From positions 352,001 to 416,000 of the forward strand of contig CAWBKB010000001.1 in the NCBI GenBank assembly GCA_963789265.1: a stretch of DNA of 64,000 bases. Reading direction: 5' to 3'. This document shows positions 4,601 to 22,207 of this stretch, piece by piece. The first letter of the stretch is position 1. The number at the start of each line of letters is the position of its first letter. The stretch comes from an uncultured delta proteobacterium. Its GTDB lineage: Bacteria; Desulfobacterota; Desulfomonilia; Desulfomonilales; Desulfomonilaceae. A program made the translations under genes and the position numbers. The notes beneath the pieces are model-generated. The model worked only from the letters and a program-made list of their open reading frames with translations, had not been told where the DNA came from and did no database searches.

Positions 4601-5666
4601 GATCCCTTCGCCTGCAGATTCAAGGAGCAGCCTGGTACGCTCTTCCGATTCGCGCAGCTCTTCCGTGCGATCTTTGACCAACTGCTCCAGATGATCCCTG
4701 TATCGTGCGATCTCGCTCCGAGCCATTTCAGCATCCTCGGCCAGGCTCAAAGCAGCGGCCTGGCTGCGACGCAGTTCCTCGGCCCTCCTTTTTATATCCT
4801 CGGTGGCCCGTGAAGCGCGAATTCGATCTAACGAGAGGGAGCCCACGATCTTGGCGAAACCCGACAAAAAGCCAAGAATGCTCGGTAGCTTTGCCTCGTC
4901 CATCATTGGCACTTCCTTGATGGATGCCACATAATCCTCTTCATCGTAACCGAGGTCTCGAGCCTGGCGACGGAAGAAGTCGAGATCGGGTTCCTGTAAG
5001 TGGAACTGGCCGATAAGAATATTGGCCACATGCTTCCCGTCTATGATCAGCGGAGAAGCAGCGTCCGTCAGGCCATTCTTGCATGTATAAATCGTGAAAT
5101 CCTGACCTTCCTTCGAGTCTGGAACCCAGTATTGCGTCGCTTTCGGCACAGCGTTGAGAGGAAATTTCGCCAGCACGATGGAATTGGGTGCAAGCCCGCC
5201 GAAAATTTGCGAATGCCAGCAGGTTGCCGTTGAGGTCCGATATGGCCGAGGCAACTCCGACCGCATCGCAGAAGTGGGCAAGAAGTGTCTGCAAATCCTC
5301 AACATTCAATAAGTCCGCTGCCTCCAAATCTTCAGGTTCCCCTCCTGAGACGGCGTCTCGATCCTTCATGGCCGGGACCGCCTCGTCCAAGGCCGCATCC
5401 TTTTCAATCTGTTCCAGGGATCCGTAAGGCTCGGGCTTGCCGGCAGCCTGGGCCAAGTCGTTAGCTTCTTTTTTCAGATCGAGAATCCGCTGTTCCCTGG
5501 CCATGACCAGGCGATTGAGTCGTTCGAATTCCAGGATTCTTTCCTGCAATTCAGATTGGGCAATGCCGTCCCCTTTCTGCGCCTTGTCGCCGGATTCTTT
5601 CGCTTCAACGGCCGACGGCTCTGTTACAAGAAAGCGATCCTGTTCAGTCATGGTGTACTCCGACAA
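1629..5666 (-). CDS. Hybrid sensor histidine kinase (PocR-PAS-PAS-HisKA-HATPase-REC-REC-HPt); frameshifts near 5112, 3210 and 3143
   Basis: PocR-like CKNGLTDAASPLIIDG; two PAS domains; FLANMSHEIRTPMN; NNAVKFT; DTGVG; GTGLGL; two REC domains; HPt AHTVKG, spread over ORFs 4941-5666, 3107-5305, 3034-3219 and 1629-3125. Confidence 0.85.
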
Positions 5667-5730
5667 TTGTTCGACGATTCTGATGATCTAATGCAAGATA
5701 ATTGGAAATCGCCAAAGTGAGTGTTGCCTC

Positions 5731-6117: not shown

Positions 6118-6320
6118 TGGCAGTGGCAACGTGCGACCGGAAACGTTCTCATTGACCGGAGGCGGTCTGGTGAGTTACGCTCAACAAATTGAAAAAGCGG
6201 GTTTCTTTGGCAAAGGTACGACGTTTTTGTCTCTGCCGGGTCTTGTGGGAGGAGATACAGGAGCCTTTTCGAGGTCAAAGGAACCATCTCTCACCCCTCA
6301 CTGGCACCAAGACGCTTGAA

Positions 6321-8711
6321 ATGGCAAAAGCCTCGCATAATCCCAGTCTAAGCAGGTCAAGTATGCAAAAACATGGTGACCCTTCTTCACCCAGTTCTTA
6401 TAGACCCGACAATGCTACACTATCTCGAGGCGGTTCCACTCCCTCTGGTTCCACTTTCTGGATTTCGTATCTTTTGTGTCTGATCTTTAGTTCACTACTC
6501 TTCACCGGATTGTTCGAGTGGCACATCTATATCGAATTGTTGCACCATGAGGCTATAAGTCTGACTTTCCCTGAACAGGGCGCTCTCTTTTGGCTTTTGA
6601 TCGCGAAATCCATGGTATTGGCCCTTCCGGTCCTAATAGTTGTGGCTGGATTGTTATGGTTGGGATGGAAACGGGCTGCGTCATGGTTTTTCACCGTTAC
6701 CTGGATACTGATTTTCTTTTGGATGATTACGGATCTGCTTTCATTTCGCTTCTCCGGGAGCCATATTGCCGACTATGTTCCCAATATTAAGGACATTCTG
6801 AGTGCTCCCCAGGAACAACAGTGGCAGTGGATGGGTAAAGGCGTTTTGCTTCAAGCTGCTACCGTGTTAGGGGCTGTTTGTCTGATAGCGGGGGGAATGC
6901 TGTTTGTCGTAAAGCGATTTGCGGTTCGGTTCATCAAACGATTCTCGCCTTTGAGAAGTTTCTTAGCCGTCATGGCGCTATACCTATTCATAATTGTCGG
7001 CTTTGTTCCTGCTCTAGCAGCTTTTGCCGGCGATGATTTGCTTCGCATTATTTACGGCCTTTTACCCATGGACACACTCGTGCTGGAGAACAGCGTTGTC
7101 AATGTCAGAGAATTTGAAGGGGCTTCGAACAGTGCCTACGCCGGGACTTCGTCTGAGAAGTCCCAGCTTGGATTGGATGGTCGAAGAAAGAGCGTACGTG
7201 CGCTCACTCTTCAGAACAGAACCAGGGTGACACTGGACTTGACAGGATGGCGACTCCAAGATTCTCTGGGGAGACACTATGATTTGACAGGAATATTGAA
7301 ACCCGGCCAAGGTACACGAGTGTCTCTGTCCGCCCACGAGATCTCCGGTCGCGATTTTCTCGTTATTGACGGTGCCGGCTGGCTACGGTTTCGCGGCAGG
7401 CTAATAGAAGGTGGTTTATTCCCCAAGTTGATCTTGAGCGGACAAAGGTCCGCGGATTGCTTGCCAAATGTAAATGTGGACATTGAGGAAGCGCTATTGG
7501 ACAAGACATGCATTGATGATGCTTTTGATCCGAAGCCCGCGGACTTCTCAGCAGTGCTGTCCAAGAGGCAGCTTCCTAACGTGATCCTTATTACGGTCGA
7601 GAGTTTTCATTTCTCCGCCATTGGACCAGAAATGATGCAAAAGCTTGACCGTATAGCGGACAGAGGTCTGCGCCTCAGCAGGCATTACTCCTCTTCTAAC
7701 ATTTCACAATTGGGCATCTACTCTCTGCTCCACGGCAGAAGCGGGATCACGTACCGCAGCACGCTGCAAAGGAAAACGCCTGCGCAATTATGCTTGTCTC
7801 TCAAACAGTCTGGGTACAGACGTTCGTTCGTCACTAGTGGCGAAATGCGTTCATGGAGACGCATGGACGAAATTTTCAACTCTGTCAATTTTGACAATGT
7901 GGTGAAGCTACCTAACTCTTACGGCAAGAATTGGCTTACAAGCTCGGATGACTGGCCCTCCGACGATCGATGGAAGCTTGGAGAGACATTGCGAATCGTT
8001 TCTCAAAACACTCGGGAACCCAACTTCGTGTTCACATTTTTGATGTCCACGCACTATTCCTACGCGTGTCCTCCCGAGTTCCAAAGGTATACTCCTAATG
8101 ACCTGCCCTCATTCGTGATGTGGTCTCAAAAGGACCTGGGAATACTTCGGAATCGTTACAAGAACACCGCCCTCTTCCTCGAAGATGAGCTGCTCAAATT
8201 TATTAAGAAGTTGGACCTCAAGAAAAACATTGTAATAATAACCGGAGATCACGGCGAGTCTCTTGGGGAAGAGGGGAGCACTGTACACGGTAATCGTAAA
8301 TCCGATGTGCAGTTACGAACACCCCTCGTGATGCTAGGCGGCGACATCCGTCCTCGCAAAGTGCAGTACGCTACAACTCATACGGACTTGCTGCCGACCC
8401 TACTCCATGTTTTGGAAAGGAAGCATGTTCCCGTCGCCCACACGCACGGCCGTGACTTAATCGAAAATGGGCTTAACGAAGATCAGGTCACCGTGACGCC
8501 TTATAAGCATGCGCACAAGGCGGATTGGCTGTTGGTCATAAGTGGCCGGAAGCGCAGTCTTTTCCGCGCTCTCCCAGACGCACCGAAGGGGCCCACAGTC
8601 GGCTTCTTCGTTCATCTGGACGAATCAGGCCGCTCTATGCCCGATTTCTCGTGTGGCAAACGTTCAACAGGGCTGGTCGTACCACTGAAAGAATTGAGAT
8701 CACAGTGGTAA
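6321..8711 (+). CDS. Membrane-anchored sulfatase/alkaline-phosphatase-fold protein (YejM/LtaS-like) with a lamin-tail-like insertion; start uncertain
   Basis: About 5 N-terminal TM segments; PNVILITVESF, STHYSY, TGDHGE and HTDLLPT motifs; LQNRTRVTLDLTGWRLQD...LKPGQ resembles an LTD. Confidence 0.7.
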   Translation: MAKASHNPSLSRSSMQKHGDPSSPSSYRPDNATLSRGGSTPSGSTFWISYLLCLIFSSLLFTGLFEWHIYIELLHHEAISLTFPEQGALFWLLIAKSMVLALPVLIVVAGLLWLGWKRAASWFFTVTWILIFFWMITDLLSFRFSGSHIADYVPNIKDILSAPQEQQWQWMGKGVLLQAATVLGAVCLIAGGMLFVVKRFAVRFIKRFSPLRSFLAVMALYLFIIVGFVPALAAFAGDDLLRIIYGLLPMDTLVLENSVVNVREFEGASNSAYAGTSSEKSQLGLDGRRKSVRALTLQNRTRVTLDLTGWRLQDSLGRHYDLTGILKPGQGTRVSLSAHEISGRDFLVIDGAGWLRFRGRLIEGGLFPKLILSGQRSADCLPNVNVDIEEALLDKTCIDDAFDPKPADFSAVLSKRQLPNVILITVESFHFSAIGPEMMQKLDRIADRGLRLSRHYSSSNISQLGIYSLLHGRSGITYRSTLQRKTPAQLCLSLKQSGYRRSFVTSGEMRSWRRMDEIFNSVNFDNVVKLPNSYGKNWLTSSDDWPSDDRWKLGETLRIVSQNTREPNFVFTFLMSTHYSYACPPEFQRYTPNDLPSFVMWSQKDLGILRNRYKNTALFLEDELLKFIKKLDLKKNIVIITGDHGESLGEEGSTVHGNRKSDVQLRTPLVMLGGDIRPRKVQYATTHTDLLPTLLHVLERKHVPVAHTHGRDLIENGLNEDQVTVTPYKHAHKADWLLVISGRKRSLFRALPDAPKGPTVGFFVHLDESGRSMPDFSCGKRSTGLVVPLKELRSQW

Positions 8712-8720
8712 TGGTGCCTA

Positions 8721-9515
8721 GAGCCGGTTGCAAAACCTCATAAGCATTTTTTCAACGTTACCATGACACATGCGAGTTGGAAGAAAGCAACGAACATACT
8801 GATATGATTCTCATATCTTACAACAATCCGCCGATAGTTCGTGATCTAGCTGAAGGTGCGCTCGACTGTAATTCGTCTCCTGTAGCGATCCCAGAGTCTG
8901 TCATCTTGTCGATTCACATTTCTATGATTCCTGCGATGCGGAACAAGGAGAGTGATCTCAGCCGGCGAGGCAGAGTCGGTATAGCTTCCGAGAGGAACAC
9001 CCTTGCCATCGACCAGTACCAAGCACTTCGATCCCTTTCCCCGCTTGGTCTTCCCGACTCCCGCGCCCCTTTTTTTGCTGGAAAGAAGCTCGCATCCACA
9101 AACACTTCATCCCAGTCCAGGATGCCGTTGTGGTCCAACTCTGAGAGAAAGGCACGCCACATGTCCTTGAGAACATCAGCTTCATACCACTCTCTCAGAC
9201 GCCGCCAACAGGTGGAAGGGTGCGGATACTTCTTTGGAAGATCTTTCCACCGGGCTCCCGTCCTGAGTATCCAGAGTATCCCTTCGAAGACCAACCGATC
9301 ATCCGCCGGGGGCCGCCCTCCCTTGGGATTCTTGGGGCGTTTGGGGATTAACGGCTCGATCTTCCTCCATTGCTCATCTGTCAGATACACCACTCGATCT
9401 TTCACCGGATTTACCTCCGGTGAGTCATATATACAACAAATATCGGGAGAACAACTACTTAATTCATTCGCGATATCGCGCGCTTAACACTGAACCAAGG
9501 TTTTGCAACCGGCTC
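8721..9515 (-). mobile_element. IS5-family (IS427-like) insertion sequence, defective
   Basis: Perfect 18-bp TIRs gagccggttgcaaaacct (8721-8738) and aggttttgcaaccggctc (9498-9515), flanked by TA within a CTAG context. Confidence 0.9.
8738..9405 (-). pseudogene. tnp: IS5 transposase orfA/orfB with -1 slippery site, internal deletion and in-frame stop
   Basis: orfA has LTDEQW, GILWILRTGARWKDLP; A7G4 slippery run near 9066-9076; orfB reads GKTKRGKGSK..VDGKG..VERTFS*..RY with TAG at 8846-8848. Confidence 0.85.
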
Positions 9516-9730: not shown

Positions 9731-9747
9731 TTGGCACATAATTTGCT
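9731..9747 (+). promoter_or_regulatory. Sigma54 (-24/-12) promoter
   Basis: TTGGCAC-ataat-TTGCT with GG and GC 12 bp apart, about 50 bp upstream of ATG 9800. Confidence 0.7.
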
Positions 9748-9799
9748 CTGAACCCGATGAATTAATTTGCCGCCCTGTCCAGGGGCAAGTCAGGGTCCC

Positions 9800-11737
9800 A
9801 TGAAAATACTAGTCAGACTCAATTCGCTGGAAGAATATCCTCAGAAAGTCCCCTGCCGAGACGCATGCCCGGTCCATACCGAAGCGGGAAACTATGCACA
9901 ATCCATAGTTCTGGGCAAAGACGAAGAGGGTTACCGTTGGGCCAGAAAGCCGAATCCCCTTGCCTCGGTATGCGCTAGGGTGTGCGCGGCTCCATGTGAA
10001 GACAAGTGCAGAAGAGGCGTGATTGACAGCCCTGTGACCATACGGGCGCTCAAGAGATTCGTGTGCGAGAAGCACGAACAGACCCTTCCGCAGGAATGCC
10101 GGCCTCCTGGACCAGATGAAATTATTGCCCCCCTCGAAGATAAAGTAGCGGTCATTGGCGGGGGACCAGCCGGAATGGCCTGCGCGGATACCCTGCTGAA
10201 TTGGGGATATCGTGTAACTCTGTTCGAATCTACTGAAATGCTCGGTGGTGCGCTCTGGCAATATATCCCTGAATACAGGCTTCCCAGGTCCATAGTGGGG
10301 CTTGAGGTTTGCGGTTTATTGGAGAAGGGTTTGGATCTTAAGCTTGAGACGGCGCTGAATGAAAAGCTCACTTTGTCTTCTCTGCGTAATGAAGGCTACA
10401 ATGCCTTTTTCCTTGCCTGCGGTGCAACACGGGCCCTAGACCTCGCAATCGAAGGCCGCGACGCAGATGGGGTCTTCAGAGCCATTGACTACCTCTTGAA
10501 TGTGAACAGGGGCTATCGACTGGATCTGGGTGAAAAGGTGATAGTGATCGGCGGCGGTAATGTCGCAATAGACGTAGCTCGAACTGCCTTGAGACCCGTC
10601 GAGATAGAATCGGCCAAAATCGTTCCGCCCTTGGAAGAAGGAGTCGCTGCTCTCTCGATGCACAGCGCTACGGAACGTTTTCGTGATACCGGCATTTTCC
10701 CCGCCTCTGAAGAAGGTCTTGCCGGCCTGGATGCTGCAAGATCTGCTCTCAGGGGAGGTGCTACGTCCGTGACTATGGCTAGCCTGGAGTCGTTTGAACA
10801 ACTCCCCGCGGCCCGCAGCCAGCAGGGGAGAGAAGAACTTGACGAAGCGCTAGAGGAGGGTCTCAAACTCAAGACGTCAGTCGGACCGAAAAGAATTCTG
10901 GTGAAAGATGGAAGAGTTGCCGGTGTGGAGTTCTTGGAGGTGGACCAACTCTTCGACGAGACAGGCAGGTTTGCTCCCACGTTTAAGGCGGGTACGGAAT
11001 CGACGTTAGAGGCTGATTCGGTGATACTCGCCATAGGGCAGGCGCCGGACCTCCCGTTTATTAAGGAAGAGGACAACATTGCCACCACCCTACGGGGAAC
11101 CATAAAGGTAGATCCTGAAACGTTAGAGACATCGGCTCCAGGCGTTTTTGCAGGTGGAGACGTGGCGTTCGGCCCACGAATCATTATCGAGGCCGTCGCC
11201 AATGGTAAGCGTGCGGCATATTCGATCGACCGGTATCTTAGAGGCGTTTCTCTCAGGCAACAATGCAACATTTCCGTGCAGGAGCTGAAGCCCGAGATCT
11301 TCAGGCGGGAACCTCATTATGACATCATATCCAGGCAGGTCCCGCCTTTGGAGTCCACTGAACGTCGTGTAGGCGCAACCGAGGTCGAGAAGGTCTACGA
11401 TGAACAGACTGCCCGCCGACAGGCCTTGCGATGCCTCGATTGTTATATCCACACAATCTACGATTCTGATCTTTGCATCCTCTGTGGAGCATGCGCAAAC
11501 ACGTGCCCGACTCGCTGCCTGACGTTTGTCAGCGCGACCTACCTGGAGAGCGAACACGAACCGACAGGCGTATTCTTGTCCGGGCAAGGCACGACGGGGA
11601 AAACAGCCTTAATCAAAGACGACGATTTGTGTATCAGGTGCGGTCTGTGCGCCAAAGTTTGTCCCACCAGTGCCATGACCATGGAACGTTTTCAGGTTGA
11701 AGAACAAACTCTTGAGGTACGGGAGGTACAATCTTGA
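9800..11737 (+). CDS. FAD/Fe-S NAD(P)H oxidoreductase (GltD/NfnB/DsrL-like) with C-terminal 2[4Fe-4S] ferredoxin domain
   Basis: PCRDACP and CARVCAAPCEDKC; GGGPAG; GGGNVA; GVFAGGD; CLDC, CILCGACANTCP, CIRCGLCAKVCP. Confidence 0.9.
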   Translation: MKILVRLNSLEEYPQKVPCRDACPVHTEAGNYAQSIVLGKDEEGYRWARKPNPLASVCARVCAAPCEDKCRRGVIDSPVTIRALKRFVCEKHEQTLPQECRPPGPDEIIAPLEDKVAVIGGGPAGMACADTLLNWGYRVTLFESTEMLGGALWQYIPEYRLPRSIVGLEVCGLLEKGLDLKLETALNEKLTLSSLRNEGYNAFFLACGATRALDLAIEGRDADGVFRAIDYLLNVNRGYRLDLGEKVIVIGGGNVAIDVARTALRPVEIESAKIVPPLEEGVAALSMHSATERFRDTGIFPASEEGLAGLDAARSALRGGATSVTMASLESFEQLPAARSQQGREELDEALEEGLKLKTSVGPKRILVKDGRVAGVEFLEVDQLFDETGRFAPTFKAGTESTLEADSVILAIGQAPDLPFIKEEDNIATTLRGTIKVDPETLETSAPGVFAGGDVAFGPRIIIEAVANGKRAAYSIDRYLRGVSLRQQCNISVQELKPEIFRREPHYDIISRQVPPLESTERRVGATEVEKVYDEQTARRQALRCLDCYIHTIYDSDLCILCGACANTCPTRCLTFVSATYLESEHEPTGVFLSGQGTTGKTALIKDDDLCIRCGLCAKVCPTSAMTMERFQVEEQTLEVREVQS

Positions 11738-12282
11738 GCATCACCCAAAGCTATGATGGTAGCAGGAGATCTTTCTTGGGCAAATTGGCACTCATCATTG
11801 GAGGAGTGGCAACGGGGGGAAGCGTCTATGCCGCAGTCCGATCACTGGTCCCGAATGTATTGTACGAGCCTCCTAAGACCGTAAAAGTGGGACTGCCGGA
11901 GTTCATACCAGACGGGGTAACCTTTTTCAAAGAAGCGAGAGCCTTCGTTTTCAAGAAAAGTGTGGAAGGAAAGACGAGCTTTTCCTGTATATCCGCGGTT
12001 TGCACGCACTTAGGATGCCTGGTCCAGCACGTGGCCAAAGAAGAAACAGTCTCGACTCCACAGGAGAAGATCCAAGTCGGTTTCTCCTGCCCATGCCATG
12101 GCAGCCGGTTCACCATCGACGGAAAGGTCGTGGGCGGACCGGCCCCCAAGAATCTGCCGTGGCTGGCGTTGGCCGTCTCCCCGGACGATGGGCAGCTTGT
12201 GGTAAACACAGCGGCTCACGTCGAAACGGGCAAGAGTTTGCTGGTTTTGGCCGTGACCGGCCGGGACGTGAGGAAGGTGTAG
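11734..12282 (+). CDS. qcrA: Rieske [2Fe-2S] subunit of a Rieske/cytb complex
   Basis: Tat-like SRRSFL plus TM anchor; CTHLGC and CPCHGS boxes; TTG start overlaps the upstream TGA. Confidence 0.9.
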   Translation: MSITQSYDGSRRSFLGKLALIIGGVATGGSVYAAVRSLVPNVLYEPPKTVKVGLPEFIPDGVTFFKEARAFVFKKSVEGKTSFSCISAVCTHLGCLVQHVAKEETVSTPQEKIQVGFSCPCHGSRFTIDGKVVGGPAPKNLPWLALAVSPDDGQLVVNTAAHVETGKSLLVLAVTGRDVRKV

Positions 12283-12284
12283 TC

Positions 12285-13595
12285 ATGGAAGAATTCTTGA
12301 AAGCACGTCGCTTTTTCTGGTCGTATTCCCCTCAGTCTCCACGGGAAGCGTCTGATTCGGTTGTATTGAATTTCCTTTTGCATGTGTTTCCCGCATACGT
12401 GACAAAGAGTGCTGTCAGCCTTACTTCCACCTTTTGGTTGGGCACGATCACCTGGGTTCTCTTCGTGATTCTCACGATCACGGGGGTGATTTTAATGTTT
12501 CTCTATGTGCCGTCGGTGGAACGTGCATACCCGAGCATGAAGGATTTGGAATTCGTGGTGAGCTACGGGCCCATTATCAGATGCGCCCATAGGATGGCAG
12601 CGCACGGCATGGTAGCTTTCGCATTTCTGCATCTGGTCAGGGTTTGGTATACCAAGTCATACAAAAGCTCACGCACCCTTGGCGGGATAAGAGAGGCCAA
12701 TTGGCTCATCGGCATTGTCCTGTTCGTGTTGACGCTGGCTCTTTCTTATAGCGGCTATCTGCTTCCCTGGGATCAACTCGCTTACTGGGCGGTGGTTATC
12801 GGCGCGAATGTGGCCAAGAATTCTCCTGTAATCGGAGACAAGCTGCGGGAGGTGCTCATAGGTGGTACTGAGATCGGTCAAAACACGCTGATACGCTTTT
12901 ACATTCTCCACTGTGTGGGGTTGCCTATCGTCCTCGGCATAGTTGGAGCATACCATATGTGGCGTATAAGGCGTGATGGTGGACTGGCTGTCACAGAAAG
13001 ACTAATGCTACAAAACGCGGGCGCAGAGGTTAGACCAAGCCCAACCAAAACGTACACCCTACTTGGAATAAAAGAGGGGTCCACGCTTTCGGTTAGGAGC
13101 AGTCTACTGCCAGATTCACTCATGACGAGGGCCAACCCCGAATTGATTCTGAGACTCCTTATAGCTGTGGTGCTTACTCACATTATCATCCTCGCCTTGG
13201 CTCTATACGTTCGGGCACCGTTGGAAGTGGCCGCTAATGCATGGTACCCACCTAACCCGGCAAAGGCACCTTGGTATTTCCTCTGGCTACAGGAACTCAT
13301 TGCAGACACTACGGTTAGAATGGGAAGTTACGTGGTAAATGGAGGGTTCGTGGGGGGCATCCTCATCCCGACGATCGTGCTCGGAGTTTTGGCCGTATGG
13401 CCTTTTCTGGATCGTAGCCCTGATCAAGCCATCGGCACGTGGTTTCACCGGTCGCGTTGGATTCAAAATGTCGTATTCACCATCGGCGCCTTCATCATCA
13501 TTGCACTCATCATAGTGGGGGCGTTTCTCAGGGGTCCTTTCTGGAAATTCTACTGGTTCGGTCAACCGTGGCCCACGGTACCGCCTCTATATTAG
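12285..13595 (+). CDS. qcrB: Cytochrome b (b6-like domain fused to subunit IV-like domain)
   Basis: HRMAAHGMVAFAFLH; SGYLLPWDQLAYWA; RFYILH..H; PNPAKAPWY (PEWY equivalent); start taken at ATG 12285. Confidence 0.9.
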   Translation: MEEFLKARRFFWSYSPQSPREASDSVVLNFLLHVFPAYVTKSAVSLTSTFWLGTITWVLFVILTITGVILMFLYVPSVERAYPSMKDLEFVVSYGPIIRCAHRMAAHGMVAFAFLHLVRVWYTKSYKSSRTLGGIREANWLIGIVLFVLTLALSYSGYLLPWDQLAYWAVVIGANVAKNSPVIGDKLREVLIGGTEIGQNTLIRFYILHCVGLPIVLGIVGAYHMWRIRRDGGLAVTERLMLQNAGAEVRPSPTKTYTLLGIKEGSTLSVRSSLLPDSLMTRANPELILRLLIAVVLTHIIILALALYVRAPLEVAANAWYPPNPAKAPWYFLWLQELIADTTVRMGSYVVNGGFVGGILIPTIVLGVLAVWPFLDRSPDQAIGTWFHRSRWIQNVVFTIGAFIIIALIIVGAFLRGPFWKFYWFGQPWPTVPPLY

Positions 13596-13622
13596 AGAAC
13601 CGAAATTCTTCAACAAGGAGGA

Positions 13623-14833
13623 TTGAAAGAATTGCCCTTAGAAACGTCTCGCGGCCCTCGAGTGATTCTTCTGGCGCTGGTGATCATCCTGGCGGTATGC
13701 GTTGCCCTCGTTATTCGTACGGACTATACGCAGCCGTGGCGCGCTCATCAGAAAAAATTCAAGAGCATCATAGAAAGCAAGTTCGGTGCTGACAAAGCGG
13801 CTCAGATTCAGGTTGGAATCCAGCAGATCTGGATACCCGATCTGAGGGTCACCGACCGGTGCGTAACATGCCACATGGGCGAATCATGGAAAGGACTGGA
13901 GGACCAGGTACATCCCGTATGCCAGCCATTCCCGGCCTAAGCTGATTTCGAAACATCCGTTTGACAAATTTGGCTGCACTTTTTGCCACGGAGGCCAGGG
14001 TTATGCCACCGAACAAGCTGAAGCTCACGGTTGGGTAGAGGACTGGCAAGATCCTCGTACGGATCTAAAACTGGCAGAGAGTTACCTACTCAAAGACACA
14101 AGTGGTTTTCTCCAACTGCGCTGCAATTATTGCCATCGCTATGAGCACGGCGTTAAAGGGATGGAATTCATCGACCACGCTAAGGAATTGGTGCGCGTCA
14201 AAGGATGTCGCGCCTGTCACACGATCAGCGGCTTCGGAGGGAACATCGGACCGGATCTGACCTACGAAGGAGACAAACCCAGGGATCAGTACCGACTTCA
14301 CTTCCGGTGCTGTGGAGTATCCGAGTGTCTTCAACTGGCACATCGCACACTTTAAGAACCCGAAATCAGTTGTTCCCACGTCTATCATGCCTGAGTTTCA
14401 ATTTTCCACTGTTGATCTACAGTCCCTTACCCTGTTGGTTCTGAGTTGGAGAAAGATGATACTCTCCGTTGCGTACATGCCTCACCTTAAAGTCGTCCCG
14501 GTGCGACCTCCGGAAGAAATAGAGAAAGAAAAGATGATGCTTACAGGACCTGGTGCCTTCTTTGTGAAGAAAGGGTGCTTTGTCTGTCATACCATCTCGA
14601 CGTTGAAAGTAGAATCCCCGACCAACATAGGACCCGATCTGGCGCTGGCTGAAAAGAACGTCCCGAAGAAACATAACAATCTGACCGTACCTCAGTTCCT
14701 GCACCATCCGCAGGGCACTATGGCGGTGATCTTCGGAACTCCCAAGTATCATTTGTCTGAGGAAGAGAAGAAGGCTGTAGCCGGACTTCTACAGGAGGCC
14801 TATGACAAGTTGCCTCAGGACAAGAAACAATAA
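13623..14833 (+). CDS. Membrane-anchored pentaheme cytochrome c; frameshifts near 13915 and 14292
   Basis: N-terminal TM; CVTCH, CTFCH, CNYCH, CRACH and CFVCH recovered across three frames; two GPDL class-I c domains. Confidence 0.8.
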
Positions 14834-15188
14834 CGGCAAGGGAGCCTAGCTCCTGCTCCGCAAGGAACGTCATCAGAAATAAACCAGTCTAGTTCGGCGA
14901 GGGTAAGAGTCACACTCATCCGGCGGAAACGGTGGACAGGCGTGACGAGCGACAAGGAAGAGACACCGACTTCTCTTTGCTTGCGCCATGACACCATCAC
15001 CGGCGATGGATGAATTCGGAGGGGGTCGAAAGGAGGGGCCAAGAAGCATAAGCCAACCGCGCTAGCAAACGCGGAGAAAAAGGGGAACAGGCTCTCGTAG
15101 GGACCGGAAAAGTACCTTGTATTATCGCCTGCTGCCGGATACAGAGCCGTGAACAAAGTGGGAATGAAAGTATGGAGGTTGAGCAGAG

Positions 15189-17091
15189 ATGAAAAAATTC
15201 AAGCTTTTGTTGGCCGTCGGGGTTGCGATTTTTGCTGTGGCAGCCATTATCACCGCTCACAGTGATGCGCAAAGGCGTCGAGCGCCGGCAGGAGGGGCCG
15301 CGGGGGTCCCCGCAAAATCGGAAGTTACGGAAAATGCTCTCAAAACCTACGTTCCTCCTGGGGACTTGGATGAGTGCTATGCATTTCTTTCAGGCGGACA
15401 CAGCGGCAACATTTACGTTTATGGAATACCTTCCATGAGGCACATACGGACGATTCCTGTTTTCTCTCGCTATTCCGCGACGGGATGGGGATACGACAAG
15501 AAGAGCAAAGCGATGATGGGAGGACTCACCTGGGGTGATTGCCACCATCCCGGCCTTTCCGAAACCAAAGGAATGTATGACGGGCGCTGGCTCTTTATCA
15601 ACGACGTCGCCGGTGGACGCATCGCCAGAATCGATCTTAGAGACTTCCAATGCAAACAGATATTGGGTCCTCTTCCTAATCTGGCGGGCAACCATGCGTC
15701 GTCATTCGTCACATGGAACACGGAATACATCATTGGAGCAACACGGTTTTCTATCCCAATTCCCAAGGGAACTGTGGCCGATGTCAAGGATTACAAAGAA
15801 AAGTACCACGGGGTTATAAGCGCGACCAAGGTGGACCCCAAAGACGGCACCATGAGCGTGGCCTGGCAGATTGTCATGCCACCTTGGGATTACGATCTGT
15901 CCCGTGCGGGTAAACTTGTATCCGGGGACTGGTTTTTTCTGACCTGCTACAACAGCGAGGCTGAGTTCATCGAAGGCAAGCCTCTTGAGATTACTGCGTC
16001 GGCAAGAGACAAGGATTATATCATCGCAGTCAACTGGAAGGGAGTCGAAAAAGAGGTTGAGAAGGGCAACGTAACCCAAATCGATGGCGTGAAGGTCTTC
16101 GATCCGGTCAAAACACCAGGATATGTCTTTGGGATTCCATGTAAAAAGTCGCCCCACGGAGTGGATGTTACCCCCGATGGAAAACACATCGTGGGTAGCG
16201 GAAAACTTGCGCCGGTAGTTTCAATCTTCAGTTTCGAAAAACTGCTCAAGGCCATCCAGGATAAAAACTTTTCCGGCACTGACATGGGAATTCAGGTTGT
16301 CAAGGCTGAGGCCGTTGAGGAAGCAGAAGTCCCTGTTGGACTGGGTCCTCTGCATACAATCTTCGACGACAAAGGGTTCGCGTACACTTCTTTGTTCGTT
16401 GAGAGTGCAGTCGCCAAATGGCAGTGGCAAGGCGGCCAACAGTGGAAAATGGTGGATAAGATACCTGTACAGGTACAATATCGGTCATATCGCCTCTCCT
16501 GAAGGGGATACTGTGAAGCCTCTCGGCAAATGGGTGCTCGCTCTCAACAAACTGTCTAAAGGGACTCACCTCCGTGTGGGGCCGCATCAGCCTGAATCCT
16601 TGCAACTCATAGATATTACCGGCCCCAAAATGAGGCTTATTTATACGGCGTTCCCGGAACCCGAGCCCCATTACGCACAGATTATCAAAGCGGACAAGCT
16701 GAAGAATGTTATCGAAGTGTACAAAAAAGAGGAAAACAAGGATCCTAACGCAACATGGGATCCAAAGAATGCTCGCATTAAGCGCGATGGCAACACAGTG
16801 AAGGTATGGATGACGGCCATCAGATCCTCAATCATGCCGAATGTCATCCGATGTAACGAAGGTGACAAACTCGAAATATACTTGACGAACATTGAAGAGA
16901 TGACCAACGAGCTTCACGGATTCGGGGTCTGCGGGTACAACGTCTCAGGTGTGCCCGCACCCGGGGAAACAGTGAATATTGAATTCGTGGCTGACAAGCC
17001 CGGAGTATGGCCCTATTACTGCACCAACTTCTGCTCCGCTCTCCATCAAGAGATGCAGGGTTACTTGATCGTGAATCCGAAGCAGAAGTAG
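15189..17091 (+). CDS. nosZ: Nitrous-oxide reductase, clade II (Sec-type); frameshift near 16472
   Basis: Sec signal without twin-Arg; CuZ motifs DCHHP, GNH, PHG, GPLH, IGH, EPH; CuA motif HGF..CTNFCSALHQEM. Removing one G joins KIPVQ-YNIGH. Confidence 0.93.
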
Positions 17092-17109
17092 CCTCGCGGG
17101 GAGAGAACT

Positions 17110-17733
17110 ATGAAAGCGACGGTGGTTGTGAGGTCCTTGCTTTTGATAGGCGCTTCTGTGTTGATCGTGATCAGTTTTAAGTATCCCATGTGGTACATGT
17201 TCCTGGATTCCAACAATTTTCCCAAGGGTCTTGGCATGGCGATATGGGCCACCCATCCAGGGGATACGCCGGACGTGAAAGAACTGGATGGAGGCCTGAA
17301 TGAGGTCAACATACTCAATCATTACATAGGAATGAGGCATATTTCCAGTGCCATGCCCGTCTTTAAAGTGCTGCCGATCGTTCTGGCGAGCATGGCCGTG
17401 CTGTGCCTTGTTGCAGCCTTTGTAAGAAAGCGATGGCTGACGCTCCTAAGTGTAATCTGGTTTGCGCTGGTTTCCGCGGGCGGCATAGTGACTTTGATCT
17501 ATACCGTGTACTCCTTCGGACATGATTTGGATCCTCATGCCCCCATCAAGGTCGCTCCGTTTATGCCGGGCATCTATGGAGAACACCATCTGGCCCAGTT
17601 CACCACGTACTCAGACTTTTATTGGGGAACGTATTTGCTCATCGGAGCGTTTCTCCTCGTCGTGGTGGCATGGGTTCTAGATCTCATCTCATCTCATCGG
17701 CGTGCGGAGCCGCAGCCGAGGGGTGGTGACTGA
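17110..17733 (+). CDS. nosB: NosB-like membrane protein
   Basis: 4 TM segments, EVNILNHYIGM and GHDLDPHAPIK motifs, directly after nosZ. Confidence 0.75.
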   Translation: MKATVVVRSLLLIGASVLIVISFKYPMWYMFLDSNNFPKGLGMAIWATHPGDTPDVKELDGGLNEVNILNHYIGMRHISSAMPVFKVLPIVLASMAVLCLVAAFVRKRWLTLLSVIWFALVSAGGIVTLIYTVYSFGHDLDPHAPIKVAPFMPGIYGEHHLAQFTTYSDFYWGTYLLIGAFLLVVVAWVLDLISSHRRAEPQPRGGD

Positions 17734-17745
17734 AAGGAGTGAGCC

Positions 17746-18135
17746 GTGAAAGAGACTAAAGCCACACGGTGGATCGTGGGCTTGGTTGTTGCGCTGATGG
17801 CTTGCCTTACTGCCCAGATGACTTTTGGGCAGCAAGATTATCAGAAGGCAGCACTGGCAGCGTATGCCAACTGTGAAGCTACAAGGAAGTTAGTGGATGA
17901 CAGCCTCAAAAAGCTGGACCCAAAACTTGGCTCCGCCACCGCTAGCGAGGGTTTTAAACGTGAGGTGGCGGACGCTAAGGAGTGGTTCAAGAAAGCCGAT
18001 GATTTGCTCGCCCAGTCCAAGAAGAAGATGGACGATAAGAAATTTGACAAGGACCTGGTAGAGAATCTGAATCAAGCCTGGCGATGGTACGTGGAAGCAG
18101 GAACGGCGGCCGTACGGGCTGGCATGATGGATTAA
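17746..18135 (+). CDS. Hypothetical secreted helical protein
   Basis: AAGGAG RBS, GTG start, signal peptide, Lys/Ala/Asp-rich amphipathic sequence. Confidence 0.7.
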   Translation: MKETKATRWIVGLVVALMACLTAQMTFGQQDYQKAALAAYANCEATRKLVDDSLKKLDPKLGSATASEGFKREVADAKEWFKKADDLLAQSKKKMDDKKFDKDLVENLNQAWRWYVEAGTAAVRAGMMD

Positions 18136-18214
18136 ATTTCGGTTTAGATGATGCCTTACTTGGTCTGTCCCCCGGACGCCCTGGCCGGGGAACAGATTCC
18201 ACAGGAATGGTCGT

Positions 18215-19675
18215 ATGCTTAGACGACTCACACGACTCGTCCAACCCAATAAATGGCCCAAGACTGTCCTAATCATGGCCCTCTTGGGCCTAACCCTTTT
18301 GCTGTTGGCCTCTAAGACACAAGCCAAGGTGATCACTGTTGGCAAAGTCAACGACGCTTCCACTCTTGGGTCTCCGAAGCTGGCGCTGAAAAAGGCTAGA
18401 CCGGGAGACGTTATTGAGGTTTATAGCGGGACCTATAACGGGAATTGGGTCGTCAAAACGGAGAATATAGTTCTACGAGGCATTGGCCGGCCGGTTATCC
18501 AGGGCGGAAAAACGGGAACCGTCGTTACAGTAGGCGCGAATTCCGTGGTCATCAAGGGATTTGTCATTCGAGGCGGGGGGCGCGAGTCTCTGACCGACGA
18601 TGCGGGCCTGAAAGTAATGAAAGCCAAGGAATGCGTGATAACTGGGAGCCGCTTTGAAGACAACCTTCACGGGATTTATCTCATCGGATCTGATAAATGC
18701 TCGGTCACGAATAACGTGATCCGTGGGCGGTCTTACGATTATCAGGAATATAGGGGAAATGGCATCCACCTTCATGATTCCCCATTCGCCAAAGTAGAAC
18801 ACAACGACATTGCGGACACACGCGACGGTGTATATGTCTCCTTTTCCGGTCACTGCACAATTGATTACAACAAGATTCACAGGCTTCGTTATGGCTTGCA
18901 TTATATGTATTCACACAACAATTCGTTTTCATACAACACTCTCATTGACAACGTGGCCGGTGCTGCGGTCATGTACGCGAGAAATATCAAATTCAACGGA
19001 AACGTCGTGGCCCATAATCGTGGAGCCCGGGCTTATGGAATCCTGTGGCAGGATGTGAGACATTCCGAGTGCTTTGACAATCTCATATTTGATAACACTA
19101 TCGGCCTGTATATGGACCATGCCGGCTTTTCCAAGGTTTACAATAACGCGATTGCTTCAAATGATGTAGCCATTATTATTCTGGAGAATTCAGAGAACAA
19201 TAACATATACGGCAACAATTTCTTAAACAATCTCTCTCTGTTAAGACTTCGGGGAAGAGCGCAAATCGGGCACAACAATTTGTTTTACAAAAATGGCCGC
19301 GGAAATTATTGGAGCGACTATAGAGGCTATGATCTTGACGGGGATGGGATAGGCGACATCCCCTACAAGTTGCAAGGAATCTGGGACTACCTCGAGACCG
19401 AATATCCTGAGTACCGACTTTTCTTCTTTAGCCCATTGACGACAGCTTTGGATATGGCAGAAAAAGCTTTTCCCATAATTGAGACCCCTATAACTGCTGA
19501 GGACAAATTCCCGTTGATGAAGCCGGTCAAGATTCAGGGACCACCTAAGGAAACGCTTGCCAAGACTGGCATGCATCGGCCCGAAATCGGAGAACGATCA
19601 GGTGTGGCATTGGCCTGTCTGTCCCTGATCTGCGGTGCGGTTGCATTTATCCGGAAAGGAATTATGACCCGATGA
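18215..19675 (+). CDS. nosD: NosD maturation protein
   Basis: Beta-helix repeats, RGNGIHL, RYGLHYMY, GNYWSDYRGYDLDGDGIGDIPY. Confidence 0.92.
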   Translation: MLRRLTRLVQPNKWPKTVLIMALLGLTLLLLASKTQAKVITVGKVNDASTLGSPKLALKKARPGDVIEVYSGTYNGNWVVKTENIVLRGIGRPVIQGGKTGTVVTVGANSVVIKGFVIRGGGRESLTDDAGLKVMKAKECVITGSRFEDNLHGIYLIGSDKCSVTNNVIRGRSYDYQEYRGNGIHLHDSPFAKVEHNDIADTRDGVYVSFSGHCTIDYNKIHRLRYGLHYMYSHNNSFSYNTLIDNVAGAAVMYARNIKFNGNVVAHNRGARAYGILWQDVRHSECFDNLIFDNTIGLYMDHAGFSKVYNNAIASNDVAIIILENSENNNIYGNNFLNNLSLLRLRGRAQIGHNNLFYKNGRGNYWSDYRGYDLDGDGIGDIPYKLQGIWDYLETEYPEYRLFFFSPLTTALDMAEKAFPIIETPITAEDKFPLMKPVKIQGPPKETLAKTGMHRPEIGERSGVALACLSLICGAVAFIRKGIMTR

Positions 19676-20583
19676 TAAGCGTCACCGGCATACATAAGAA
19701 GTTTGGCGCAATACAAGCTGTGGACGGCATGGATTTCGAATGTTCACCCGGAGAGATGATGGCTTTGATTGGACCTAACGGCTCAGGGAAATCCACGGCG
19801 CTCAGAATCATAGCGGGGCTGATGCAACCGGACGAAGGGGAGGTCCGGATTCGCGGCGAACTGATGACTATATCTGCGGTTGAACTTCGAAAGAAGATCT
19901 CCTACCTGCCTCAAAGAGTCGCGTTCCCCGAGCAGGTGACTGCCAAGGAACTGCTCACTTTTTTTGCGAGAATCAGGAAAGTTCAGGAGTCAAGGGTTTC
20001 AGAGCTGATCTCCGCTTTCGGATTTCACGATTTTGAAAGAAAGAAAGTCAGTGAGCTTTCGGGTGGAATGTTGCAGCGACTGGCAATAGCCGTAGTGTTC
20101 TTACCCGAGGCGGATCTATATATACTGGACGAGGCAACCAATAATCTTGATGCCGAAGGCTTGACTCGTTTTCACGAAGAAACGCTTTCAGTATTGAGAA
20201 AAGGCGCTGCTTTAGTCATGTCGACGCACATTATTAAAGAAGTTGAAAACCTGGCCCACAAAATCGCGATAGTCGCGCACGGCCGTGTTGTGTTGACAAG
20301 GAGAGTTGAGCAGTTCGTTAAAGACGTGGGCCAATCTCGCAAGATGTGGGTAACCTTGGAAAATCTCTCGAAAGACCACAAAGAGATCGCTCTTAAGGTG
20401 GGTGCTGAAAAGGTGCTTCTAAATTGCGATACCATGACTATTGCGTGCAAGGCGGACTTGCGAATCCCCATATTGAATGCCTTGTTCCAGGCAGGGGCAA
20501 TCGTCAGGGAATTTGGTTTGCAGGAGCCATCTCTAGAGAAAATTTACTATCAATGCCTCAGCGTGGAGGAGTCTGAACAGTAA
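19672..20583 (+). CDS. nosF: ABC transporter ATP-binding subunit NosF
   Basis: GPNGSGKS, LSGGM, ILDE; ATGA overlap with nosD. Confidence 0.85.
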   Translation: MISVTGIHKKFGAIQAVDGMDFECSPGEMMALIGPNGSGKSTALRIIAGLMQPDEGEVRIRGELMTISAVELRKKISYLPQRVAFPEQVTAKELLTFFARIRKVQESRVSELISAFGFHDFERKKVSELSGGMLQRLAIAVVFLPEADLYILDEATNNLDAEGLTRFHEETLSVLRKGAALVMSTHIIKEVENLAHKIAIVAHGRVVLTRRVEQFVKDVGQSRKMWVTLENLSKDHKEIALKVGAEKVLLNCDTMTIACKADLRIPILNALFQAGAIVREFGLQEPSLEKIYYQCLSVEESEQ

Positions 20584-20588
20584 GAATA

Positions 20589-21362
20589 ATGGTTTCAAAA
20601 AAAGCTCAAAACGTGATTCTTTCTGGGATGCTGCTGGCCCTGGTAGCCTGTGGCCGTAGCGGCGAGCCTGTCCCCGTGCCCATATACAAAGGGGAAGACG
20701 TCTGCGACACCTGTCACATGCTCATTAGCGACGTCCGATTTGCTGCGGAATGTGTGATGAAGAAGGGGCGCGTCAAGAAATTTGACGATATGATTTGCAT
20801 GGTTCGTTACTTTGATTCAGCCAAGACCTCAGAAGGTGCCACGAGAGATAAGGTTAGGGCTTACTTCGTAAAAGACTATGATACCACGGACTGGCTCGAA
20901 GCCCCCAAAGCTCATTTTGTCACGGCTGATATCACGACACCAATGGGCTCGGGCACCATTGCCTTTAAAGAAGAAGAAAGGGCCACTATTATTGCCCACG
21001 CGAATAAGGGCAAGTTACTAACCTTTGATGATCTGTGGAACGTGTTTAAGCAAGCGACCGTCAAGCGAGAAATAACAATCAAGAACGGCGTCATGACCCC
21101 TGAAGTCCTTTCGGTGAAGTACGGGGACCTTGTACAAATAAGAATAGACGTTGAAGACAACAAAGAATACAAGCTCGCAATCAAAGGCTATGAGGCTGAT
21201 GGGTTGTTTCCTGCCGCGTTACAAGGCCACCCTGCTTCCTTGAAATTGAAAGCCGATCGACCCGGTGACGACTTTTCTTTCATCGACACACAAACTAACG
21301 CGGAATTAGGGCGCTTCCGAGTAGAAGGAGCGCACTTCCCGGAAGAAATGAAAAAGAGGTGA
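20589..21362 (+). CDS. nosL: NosL copper chaperone lipoprotein with C-terminal cupredoxin-like extension
   Basis: Lipobox LVAC; CDTCHM; FDDMICM; TPMG; extra about 100-aa beta-rich C-terminal domain. Confidence 0.8.
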   Translation: MVSKKAQNVILSGMLLALVACGRSGEPVPVPIYKGEDVCDTCHMLISDVRFAAECVMKKGRVKKFDDMICMVRYFDSAKTSEGATRDKVRAYFVKDYDTTDWLEAPKAHFVTADITTPMGSGTIAFKEEERATIIAHANKGKLLTFDDLWNVFKQATVKREITIKNGVMTPEVLSVKYGDLVQIRIDVEDNKEYKLAIKGYEADGLFPAALQGHPASLKLKADRPGDDFSFIDTQTNAELGRFRVEGAHFPEEMKKR

Positions 21363-21369
21363 GTATCCA

Positions 21370-22207
21370 GTGCAGGCCGGTTCGATTACTGAAATAGCAA
21401 AGGTTGAACTGAAAATCCAACTGAGAAGCAAATGGATGCTGGGTTTTGGCATTCTCTTCGCCCTGATGATCACGGGCGTGTCTTACTATGGGCTTACCTT
21501 TCTTGGTTATGAGGCGGAATTTCAGGATTTCTATCGTACGACCGTGACCATGCTCCACCTGGTTTTCATCATCATTCCGGTAGTGGCGCTGGTGACCGCT
21601 GGTCAGAGTATTTCCAGCGATCCGGGGTACTTTGAGTTTCTCGCCTCTCAACCGGTCGGTCGTGCGGACATTCTTCTGGGAAAAGTGACGGGTCTGTTCC
21701 TGGCTCTGACCATAATGACCGTTCTGGGCTTCGGATTGGGCGGAATGGTTATTGCTTTGAAAAGCAATTCTCAAGGCATTTGGAAATTCTTTATTTTCAT
21801 TGGTACTTCTATCACGCTCGGGTTCATCTTTATCTCCCTGTCTACCCTGCTTTCGGTGCTGTCGAATCGCAAGCCCATGGCGATGATAACTGCTCTGATC
21901 GTGTGGCTGTTTTTCCTGTTCATTTATGATTTTATCGTTCTTGCCGCGTCCTATTACATGGAAGAAGCCTATCTCAGAACCATTTTGTATTTTTCCTTAT
22001 TGGGTAATCCTATTGACATGGCCAGAGTGATAGTCTTGTTAACCGTAGGTGGTGAGGCGGCCCTGGGTCCCGCCGGTGCGGGTTTGCTCAGAAACCTTCG
22101 GGGGAGCAGCTACGTCCGCGATGGCAGCCGTAGGTCTCTTGGCTATCTGGGCGATAATTCCCCTGATCGGTGCGGTTCTCGTTTTCAAGAAACAGGACAT
22201 TGCGTGA
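21370..22207 (+). CDS. nosY: ABC permease NosY; frameshift near 22095
   Basis: Multi-TM; LASQPVGRADILLGK; NPID. The corrected C-terminus ends with a TM helix and KKQDIA* at 22207. Confidence 0.85.

Follow-up and report, generated by a model that had tools for sequence, protein, structure and literature searches.

How a clade II nitrous oxide reductase (NosZ) is supplied with electrons when its gene cluster holds neither NosR nor NosGH, and what a cytoplasmic flavoprotein does at the head of such a cluster, are the questions raised by a stretch of 64,000 nucleotides (hereafter the window; positions 352,001 to 416,000 of contig CAWBKB010000001.1, assembly GCA_963789265.1) from an uncultured Desulfomonilaceae bacterium, a metagenome-assembled genome (MAG) of 6.06 Mb in 9 contigs. 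NosZ is, to our knowledge, the only known biological sink of N2O, a greenhouse gas, and in soils and wastewater the dominant carriers are those of clade II. Our analysis indicates that the 11-gene cluster of the window is a new Desulfomonilaceae example of a known, widespread kind of clade II nos cluster, organised as one sigma-54-driven N2O-respiration unit. Very probably the products of its first four genes make up a modified Rieske/cytochrome b complex that is the dedicated electron supply of a Sec-type NosZ, with NosB and NosDFLY. The gene of such clusters that has been labelled 'Fe-S' is, to judge from its predicted domains and motifs, an overlooked NAD(H)-type flavoprotein with an anammox-like architecture.

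Organisation of the nos cluster

Between 9.7 and 22.2 kb every long open reading frame (ORF) is on the + strand and the 11 cluster genes are co-oriented, as a preliminary description of this DNA had claimed. The first gene (9800..11737, +) encodes a cytoplasmic FAD/iron-sulfur (Fe-S) flavoprotein of 645 amino acid (aa) residues, or 656 aa from TTG 9767, as identified by Pfam and PDB sequence matches. Its stop overlaps the start of the gene for a Rieske [2Fe-2S] subunit (11734..12282, +) by four bases (TTGA, 11734-11737). The gene of a 436-aa cytochrome b (12285..13595, +), in which a b6-like and a subunit-IV-like part are fused (Pfam Cytochrome_B, 126 bits), starts after a gap of 2 bases, and the ORF of a pentahaem cytochrome c with an N-terminal membrane anchor (13623..14833, +) starts 27 bases after the cytochrome b stop, so that the stop/start overlap and the spacing within 30 bp described earlier are both confirmed. 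They are followed by nosZ (15189..17091, +), a gene for a nosB-type membrane protein (17110..17733, +; 207 aa, four hydrophobic segments), a gene for a small exported helical protein (17746..18135, +; 129 aa), nosD (18215..19675, +; Pfam NosD, and TIGR04247 at 396 bits against a cut-off of 300), nosF for the ABC ATPase (19672..20583, +; Pfam ABC_tran and conserved position), nosL with a C-terminal cupredoxin-like stretch (20589..21362, +; Pfam NosL 55 bits, Cupredoxin_1 E 1e-3) and nosY for an ABC-2 permease (21370..22207, +; Pfam ABC2_membrane_2). Pfam and NCBIfam thus agree with the nosZ-B-orf-D-F-L-Y order read before.

No member of the NosR/NosX or NapGH-like (Fer4_5) families was matched by Pfam among the cluster ORFs, which bears out the claimed absence of nosR/X and nosG/H, and no NosC cytochromes were found between 9.7 and 22.2 kb. 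Genome-wide, Fer4_5 gave only four matches (C1:821 kb, two at C1:1076 kb, and C3:521 kb), all at least 400 kb from the cluster or on another contig.

A sigma-54-type -24/-12 element, TGGCAC-N5-TTGCT (9732..9747, +), lies 53 bases 5' of ATG 9800 and is the sole exact match in the window. The same element lies 33-40 bases 5' of the flavoprotein gene in six Desulfomonilaceae-type loci, and these six are the only + strand matches in the 1,289,116 bases of loci; it is also visible at the loose end of runs X2/X3. Because the element sits 5' of the flavoprotein gene, this gene is the first of the operon in Desulfomonilaceae. No sigma-54 match was present in the 355-base gap 5' of nosZ, and predicted sigma-70 promoters and terminators between 8.7 and 23.6 kb were no more numerous than in shuffled sequences. 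The limits of the preliminary description fit these features, 9731 falling at the sigma-54 match and 22207 being the nosY stop read across a frame change at ~22093-22096.

The nosZ gene is broken in the assembly by a frame change at 16472 into ORFs of 437 and 264 aa. On the clade II model TIGR04246 the two pieces align to positions 1-376 (528.1 bits) and 378-578 (281.3 bits), the family cut-off being 625, so that together they match the clade II profile; an intact ortholog from a related cluster (L014) scored 834.7 bits with this model and 461 with the Tat-type (twin-arginine) model. The N-terminus is hydrophobic over residues 4-22 and lacks RR, i.e. it is Sec-type, with nosB directly 3' and no nosR.

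Conservation of the module with nosZ

The four-gene module is conserved together with nosZ as a unit. Of 41 relatives sampled, nosZ was found in six, exactly those with a full-length ortholog of the flavoprotein: the genome studied here, genomes of three further genera in its family (74-80% identical) and two from a different family of the class (45-48%). The flavoprotein ortholog and nosZ are both absent from all six congeneric genomes. In the five relatives (G010, G013, G014, G033 and G034) the gene order is kept as sigma-54 regulator, flavoprotein, Rieske, cytochrome b, pentahaem cytochrome c, nosZ, nosB, the small orf and nosDFLY; both cytochrome c (414-436 aa) and NosZ (633-665 aa) are intact there, and 3' of nosY come a TlpA-like gene, one unknown gene and the gene for a second NosL.

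A profile of the pentahaem cytochrome c was then run over contigs of one genome per species, giving 93 relatives, of which the best 80 were kept. Fifty-four of these 80 loci carry the flavoprotein gene upstream and nosZ downstream; nosZ with a covered upstream side but no flavoprotein was seen in none, so the flavoprotein is present in 54/54 nosZ loci whose upstream side can be read. Among the remaining loci, three have nosZ and a flavoprotein gene truncated by the contig end, ten have nosZ with the upstream side uncovered, one has the flavoprotein with the downstream side uncovered, six show no nosZ and have the upstream side uncovered, and four (WOR-3 type) have neither gene although both sides are covered. 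Two loci (L088, Terriglobia; L098, Leptospirales) hold the flavoprotein module without nosZ; their cytochrome c is shorter and no reductase or other respiratory gene adjoins the module.

Judged by record titles, the 54 loci span at least nine phyla: Acidobacteriota (22), Thermodesulfobacteriota (9), Myxococcota (5), Bacteroidota (3), Kryptoniota (3), Gemmatimonadota (2), and Calditrichota, Latescibacterota, Zixibacteria and Bacillota (1 each). Adjacency confined to this genome had been named beforehand as the outcome that would speak against the proposal; the module and nosZ are adjacent in five relatives and in 54/54 loci. Trees of the flavoprotein, cytochrome b and NosZ, built from 41 of the 54 loci (13 were dropped for partial or broken matches), have 15-22 of 38 splits in common, compared with a permuted mean of ~0.2, an agreement that may be partly due to shared host ancestry. 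The full module is present in MAGs of Anaeromyxobacter (L035), Gemmatimonadaceae (L049) and Desulfomonile tiedjei (L025), and the complete 6.5-Mb D. tiedjei record encodes a flavoprotein of 71% identity. Against 1.84 billion representatives, the pentahaem profile matched 2517, 1283 and 352 proteins at E 1e-3, 1e-10 and 1e-30, respectively, matches that vary widely in length, come without genomic context and give a rough family size only.

This layout has been drawn before. The Fig. 5 legend of He et al. 2024 (PMC11096178) lists clade II clusters with Fe-S, Rieske (S), cy-b, cy-c, nosZ, nosB and nosDFYL, so the combination, of which the preliminary description knew no characterised example, is the regular layout of a large clade II group. 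As far as that legend goes, gene order and parts of these 'atypical' clusters are common to ours; the first gene is given there only as an iron-sulfur protein, whereas here it encodes an NfnB/GltD-like FAD/NAD(H) protein. Compared with related clade II clusters, the copy in the window differs in lacking the regulator and the downstream accessory genes and in carrying frame changes. The same cluster drawing is said to be found in Sanford et al. 2012. The literature searched contained no paper that identifies the Fe-S gene of nos clusters as a flavoprotein or discusses NAD(H). In the available portion of a 2026 review (PMC13685413), only NosHG and cytochromes are named in clade II electron supply; unlike that NosGH-centred picture, the present cluster type has neither NosR nor NosGH.

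The first gene encodes an NfnB/GltD-like flavoprotein

The flavoprotein consists of an N-terminal two-cluster domain (Fer4_20), FAD and nucleotide Rossmann domains (Pyr_redox_2) and a C-terminal 2x[4Fe-4S] domain (Fer4). Its body matched NfnA (9n5u), 9bov/9bp5, NfnB (4ylf), 5jca, GltD and dihydropyrimidine dehydrogenase in the PDB, and its C-terminal tail matched FwdF (5t5i). The N-terminal two-cluster, FAD and nucleotide domains are common to NfnB, GltD and dihydropyrimidine dehydrogenase (4ylf, 5jca, 2vdc and 1h7x), the last of which also has the added C-terminal 2x[4Fe-4S] domain. No hydrophobic or membrane segment and no signal peptide was found in the flavoprotein.

In an alignment of 12 orthologs from at least eight phyla, six Cys residues of the N-terminal domain, the GxGPAG FAD motif, the GGGxxAxD nucleotide motif, two CxxCxxCxxxCP motifs and three Cys residues before the ferredoxin domain are invariant (12/12). 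Since there are enough invariant Cys residues, four or five Fe-S clusters are possible. A family-specific insert of 20-60 residues follows GGGxxAxD in the nucleotide domain. The Arg pair ending the second strand of the nucleotide fold is the site of the NADPH 2'-phosphate; pairwise alignment places Leu-Glu of the flavoprotein opposite the Arg-Arg of 9bov and 4ylf, and at least 90% of the 12 orthologs retain the Glu (Glu330). The nucleotide site therefore looks NAD(H)-type rather than NADP(H)-type. Thus, unlike NfnB and GltD, the flavoprotein has the nucleotide-domain insert, Leu-Glu for the Arg pair and the three extra invariant Cys residues.

The protein scored under every NCBIfam equivalog cut-off (TIGR01317, 197 against 447.7; TIGR01316, 255 against 471.75; PRK12771, 391 against 516), and its database names are generic, such as 'FAD-dependent oxidoreductase' and 'glutamate synthase beta subunit-like'. 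At two loci of another family of Desulfobacterota (L092:5649-7934 and L028:1594-3837) the flavoprotein has an N-terminal extension of ~110 residues that resembles a receiver (CheY-like) domain. Natural fusions were considered as a sign of binding, namely flavoprotein-Rieske ORFs (P0271, 833 aa; P0273, 826 aa; and shorter ones) and a Rieske-cytochrome b ORF (P0274), and were given no weight: all are singletons, and the middle of P0271 is out-of-frame sequence. Such ORFs are uninformative because one indel at the four-base stop/start overlap makes a fusion of this kind.

The Rieske and cytochrome b subunits

The Rieske subunit (Pfam Rieske, E 5.5e-10) has the CTHLGC and CPCHGSRF boxes and an RRSF twin-arginine motif, and its gene is the only one found in the genome with this query. 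Box II was tried as a discriminator of flavoprotein linkage and failed: Ser is present in all sequences, flavoprotein-less homologs included, and the Tyr/Phe position varies in both groups.

On NCBIfam models the cytochrome b is ExtP-like over residues 29-234 and ExtQ-like over residues 283-424. The haem ligands His102/116 and His209/224 on helices B and D, as well as His33 near the N-terminus, are invariant in 11/11 sequences, and the ligands on helix D are 15 residues apart, a spacing which we take to be the b6 type. Among these 11 sequences no Cys is invariant or nearly so, i.e. no sign of a covalent haem cN was seen. In place of PEWY, the canonical motif of the outer quinol site, an invariant A-P-W-Y (residues 328-331) occurs in 11/11.

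A comparison of 15 flavoprotein-linked with 6 flavoprotein-less cytochromes b revealed a cytoplasmic D-E loop insert of 26-30 residues with the motif (T/S)KTYxLLG in 15/15 of the former and 0/6 of the latter; the six also have Glu in place of Gly232. Being on the correct side of the membrane, the insert is a candidate docking element for the flavoprotein. By contrast, all six flavoprotein-less cytochromes b retain 100 of the 106 positions that do not vary among the flavoprotein-linked ones, which indicates that the haem and quinone core is not remodelled.

Relation to known Rieske/cytochrome b systems

The closest architecture is found in anammox bacteria. According to the available part of Hauser et al. 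2025 (PMC12954380), the Kuenenia stuttgartiensis operons Kuste4569-4574 and Kustd1480-1485 combine, as here, Rieske/cytochrome b genes with a multihaem cytochrome c and a cytoplasmic NAD(P) oxidoreductase; the oxidoreductase Kuste4570 has 9bp5 (NfnABC) and 5t5i (FwdF) as fold relatives, both of which are sequence matches of the present flavoprotein, and four clusters were modelled from the membrane to FAD. An NfnB-like FAD/Fe-S oxidoreductase gene within a Rieske/cytochrome b operon is thus common to both, and so is the b6-type spacing on helix D of cytochrome b. The likeness to anammox NAD(P)-linked complexes, which had been suggested earlier, therefore holds for the domain architecture. Other parts differ in that comparison: the split cytochrome b6/subunit IV with haem cN of the anammox type is replaced here by one fused protein of 436 aa without a conserved haem cN Cys, the cytochrome c has five haems rather than six or eight, the partner is NosZ rather than an HAO-like protein, and the nucleotide site looks NAD-type here, the two oxidoreductases being compared via shared PDB relatives only.

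In Geobacter, the extHIJKLMNOPQS cluster includes the Rieske/cytochrome b genes ExtO/ExtP/ExtQ (Jahan et al. 2018, PMC5877670). Among NCBIfam models, our cytochrome b matched ExtP (226 bits) and ExtQ (56 bits) best, under the cut-offs of 290 and 150. Multihaem cytochromes c are combined with a Rieske protein in both systems; in Geobacter ExtP and ExtQ are separate proteins, whereas their counterparts are fused here, and no flavoprotein gene is listed for the Ext cluster in the available part of that paper.

Clade II N2O respiration with NosB and a dependence on a Rieske/cytochrome b complex, as proposed here, is also known from Wolinella succinogenes. That system reportedly comprises NosGH, NosC1/C2, NosB and a separate Rieske/cytochrome bc complex (as Hein, Witt & Simon are said to have described in 2017). 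Unlike in Wolinella, no NapGH-like genes or NosC, and hence no NosGH/NosC1C2 module, were found between 9.7 and 22.2 kb, and the Rieske/cytochrome b genes lie inside the cluster, with the flavoprotein.

Frame changes in the assembly

Three genes of the module are interrupted in the assembly. The preliminary description had correctly recognised a pentahaem cytochrome c with its five haem motifs, but treated it as one gene frame and did not remark on its breaks: the five CxxCH motifs are distributed over three frames (13623-13907, 13909-14290 and 14294-14833) with changes at 13907 and 14292, and were recovered by a three-frame translation. Similarly, nosZ and nosY had been identified properly while their breaks at 16472 and ~22093 passed unremarked. 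The three cytochrome c pieces tile the intact orthologs of 414-436 aa without loss, and intact NosZ orthologs have 633-665 aa; outside the four indels all frames are open and the pieces tile orthologs residue for residue. Public contigs of relatives with ~90-95% identity (X2, X3 and X6) have one base fewer at 14292 and 16472, X2 and X3 also at 13907, and near 22093 the assembly reads AAA where X2 reads AA. The run X1 (99+% identical) has one base fewer at 13907 and does not cover 14292.

The background rate was estimated from 400 kb of the congener G006 with 217 ORFs of at least 250 aa, of which 136 were kept (top match at least 70% identical and at least 60% covered) and 81 dropped. Twenty-seven frame changes were counted in 22 of the 136 orthologous ORFs (~16%), i.e. 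one per 6.3 kb of coding DNA. This rate predicts 2.0 changes in the 12.4-kb module, and the probability of four or more is 0.14, so four changes are not unusual. Three of the four lie at related junctions (13905, 14287 and 16470), CAG[G]TAC at two and CAGTAC[C] at one. Elsewhere CAG(G)TAC was found at 6/26 junctions against 0.53 expected, with a maximum of 4 in 2000 random draws. Loss of CAGTAC was not seen genome-wide (1601 sites against 1587 expected), therefore only a fraction of the sites is affected; CAGGTAC is in mild excess (658 against 556). Taken together, the four frame changes are likely to be assembly errors, perhaps a systematic long-read indel error at a modified (methylated) motif. 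Programmed frameshifting at CAGGTAC sites was also considered and ruled out, given that the genes are in frame in relatives and that the motif breaks unrelated genes too.

Two more genes of the window are interrupted. A PocR/PAS histidine kinase gene (3107-5687, -) is split within the PocR domain, whose profile positions 1-66 and 70-159 lie in successive ORFs, and a SpoIIE response-regulator phosphatase (664-1683, -) ends at profile position 109/192; both are further assembly frame breaks. Pseudogene calls from this assembly are unsafe, as roughly one in six ORFs is broken by motif-linked indels.

Electron flow and alternative explanations

We infer that the four proteins, a Tat-exported Rieske subunit, a fused cytochrome b, a membrane-anchored pentahaem cytochrome c and a cytoplasmic NfnB/GltD-like FAD protein, form one complex, which would act with the NosB, small periplasmic protein and NosDFLY maturation system encoded after nosZ. 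Menaquinol would be oxidised at the outer quinol site, one electron passing via the Rieske subunit and the pentahaem cytochrome c to CuA of NosZ, and on the cytoplasmic side an Fe-S chain would connect the b haems and the inner quinone site with FAD and NAD(H), and the flavoprotein would dock on the family-specific D-E loop insert. With NADH as the donor, an option that the preliminary description had itself named as its alternative, menaquinone would be reduced at the inner side by the entering electrons, giving a self-contained NADH:N2O chain with a normal Q-cycle. We favour this direction over quinol-driven NAD+ reduction because the cytochrome b core is unchanged, the nucleotide site appears NAD-type and most hosts are from heterotroph lineages (Acidobacteriota alone account for 22/54 loci), although the sequence evidence makes NADH input a tentative choice, at slightly under even odds. 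In the reverse direction, which the preliminary description had put forward, the module would be a working quinol:NAD+/N2O electron-bifurcating complex: menaquinol electrons would be split, one going through the Rieske subunit and the pentahaem cytochrome c to NosZ and N2O, the other across the membrane through the b haems, Fe-S clusters and FAD to NAD+. Such bifurcation is conceivable by analogy with anammox, and we consider it rather doubtful. The domain architecture matches that of Kuste4570/Kustd1483 (NfnABC-like and FwdF-like Fe-S domains with FAD), the anammox Rieske potentials of +303 and +335 mV fit a bifurcation scheme (PMC12954380, available part), and a Ser/Phe pair in Rieske box II is common to Kustd1480 and our protein, although the Ser also occurs in flavoprotein-less homologs and so does not discriminate. 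Moreover, only bifurcation requires an attached flavoprotein, and the tight operon and the loop insert suggest attachment. However, cytochrome b has the same core whether or not a flavoprotein is linked to it, and since this core is unchanged, the inner quinone site is probably intact and would compete for, and capture, the low-potential electrons; no invariant Cys in 11/11 cytochromes b points to the haem cN used in anammox models, the cytochrome b is fused rather than split, and the mostly heterotrophic hosts have no obvious need of NADH from quinol. It is improbable, the least likely of the readings, that the flavoprotein is not a subunit at all and is instead a soluble enzyme that keeps the NosZ copper reduced, as NosR would, or supplies sulfur or thiols for CuZ. 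The absence of nosR and nosGH from the cluster leaves some activating function unaccounted for, and NfnB/GltD-like proteins work in many soluble systems; but the flavoprotein gene still precedes those of the Rieske subunit, cytochrome b and cytochrome c in L088 and L098, where nosZ is absent, its stop overlaps the Rieske start, the D-E loop insert tracks its presence, and the protein has no signal peptide or membrane segment while NosZ is periplasmic.

Several points weigh against our interpretation as a whole. A plain NADH dehydrogenase would not need attachment to a Rieske/cytochrome b complex, and physical coupling is mandatory only in the bifurcation model. The rule that separates NAD from NADP sites is a textbook generalisation. 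The six flavoprotein-less cytochromes b form one clade, sister to a flavoprotein-linked sequence, so that the loop-insert contrast stands for one evolutionary event; the 6/35 co-occurrence count includes kin, which are not independent; and the loci were chosen via the cytochrome c, so nos clusters without it were not sampled. For the copy in the window, the cluster-linked sigma-54 regulator, TlpA-like gene and second NosL are missing (the best matches elsewhere in the genome are 40%, 30% and 29%, respectively), and X1 covers 16472 at a depth of 4.3, where the deletion is not shown. The last two points also speak for the cluster being a decaying remnant, in which the breaks in cytochrome c, nosZ and nosY would be real and N2O respiration lost, as do the four single-base insertions within 12.4 kb, the lack of the FtsX/ABC genes that flank the clusters of relatives, the IS5-family transposase fragment just upstream and the presence of the cluster in 0/6 congeneric genomes. 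Decay is nevertheless quite unlikely, given a frame-change rate that equals the genome background (P = 0.14), the tie of the changes to one sequence motif, the contradiction of the assembly by X1 at 13907, and the open frames and residue-for-residue tiling outside the four indels. Because X1 is without the deletion at 16472, we allow that the nosZ break may be real in this strain, although this is unlikely.

How much energy N2O respiration yields in Acidobacteriota, Gemmatimonadota, Myxococcota, Bacteroidota relatives and Desulfobacterota depends on the direction of flow. Under bifurcation, if true, NADH would serve biosynthesis or be re-oxidised by complex I, giving a higher proton yield per N2O and raising the energy yield of N2O respiration. 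So far bifurcation has been proposed only for anammox bacteria, which are hard to grow; if true here, it would extend to at least nine phyla. Cultivable carriers (Anaeromyxobacter, Gemmatimonas and Desulfomonile) would offer a genetically tractable test of the 'quinol to NAD(P)H' idea that is disputed for anammox.

Accessory and flanking genes

The nosB-type protein, which matched no Pfam or NCBIfam family and was assigned by its conserved position, shares 43-64% identity with its counterparts in five related clusters and 28-38% with those in other phyla. The 129-aa protein, likewise without a Pfam or NCBIfam family, is 38-48% identical across the five related clusters, always in the nosB-nosD interval; a protein atlas gave a weak lead to the metal-binding protein SmbP (score 0.82). 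It is conserved in Desulfomonilia, with weak matches in one Calditrichota locus and some Kryptoniota loci.

Directly upstream of the cluster lies the IS5-family transposase fragment (8914-9405, -; DUF4096 domain only, 163 aa), at the place where relatives have the sigma-54 response regulator gene. Downstream of nosY, relatives carry a TlpA-like thioredoxin gene and a second, double-domain NosL (L014:18898-19842). In the window, the cluster is preceded by a sulfatase-domain membrane protein (6189-8711) and followed by five sulfatase genes and three DUF1254/DUF1214 genes (23526-48955), as well as by a 705-aa protein (29499-31616, +) in which multihaem cytochrome motifs (c3/c7/c554-like) occur together with HEAT and many TPR repeats.

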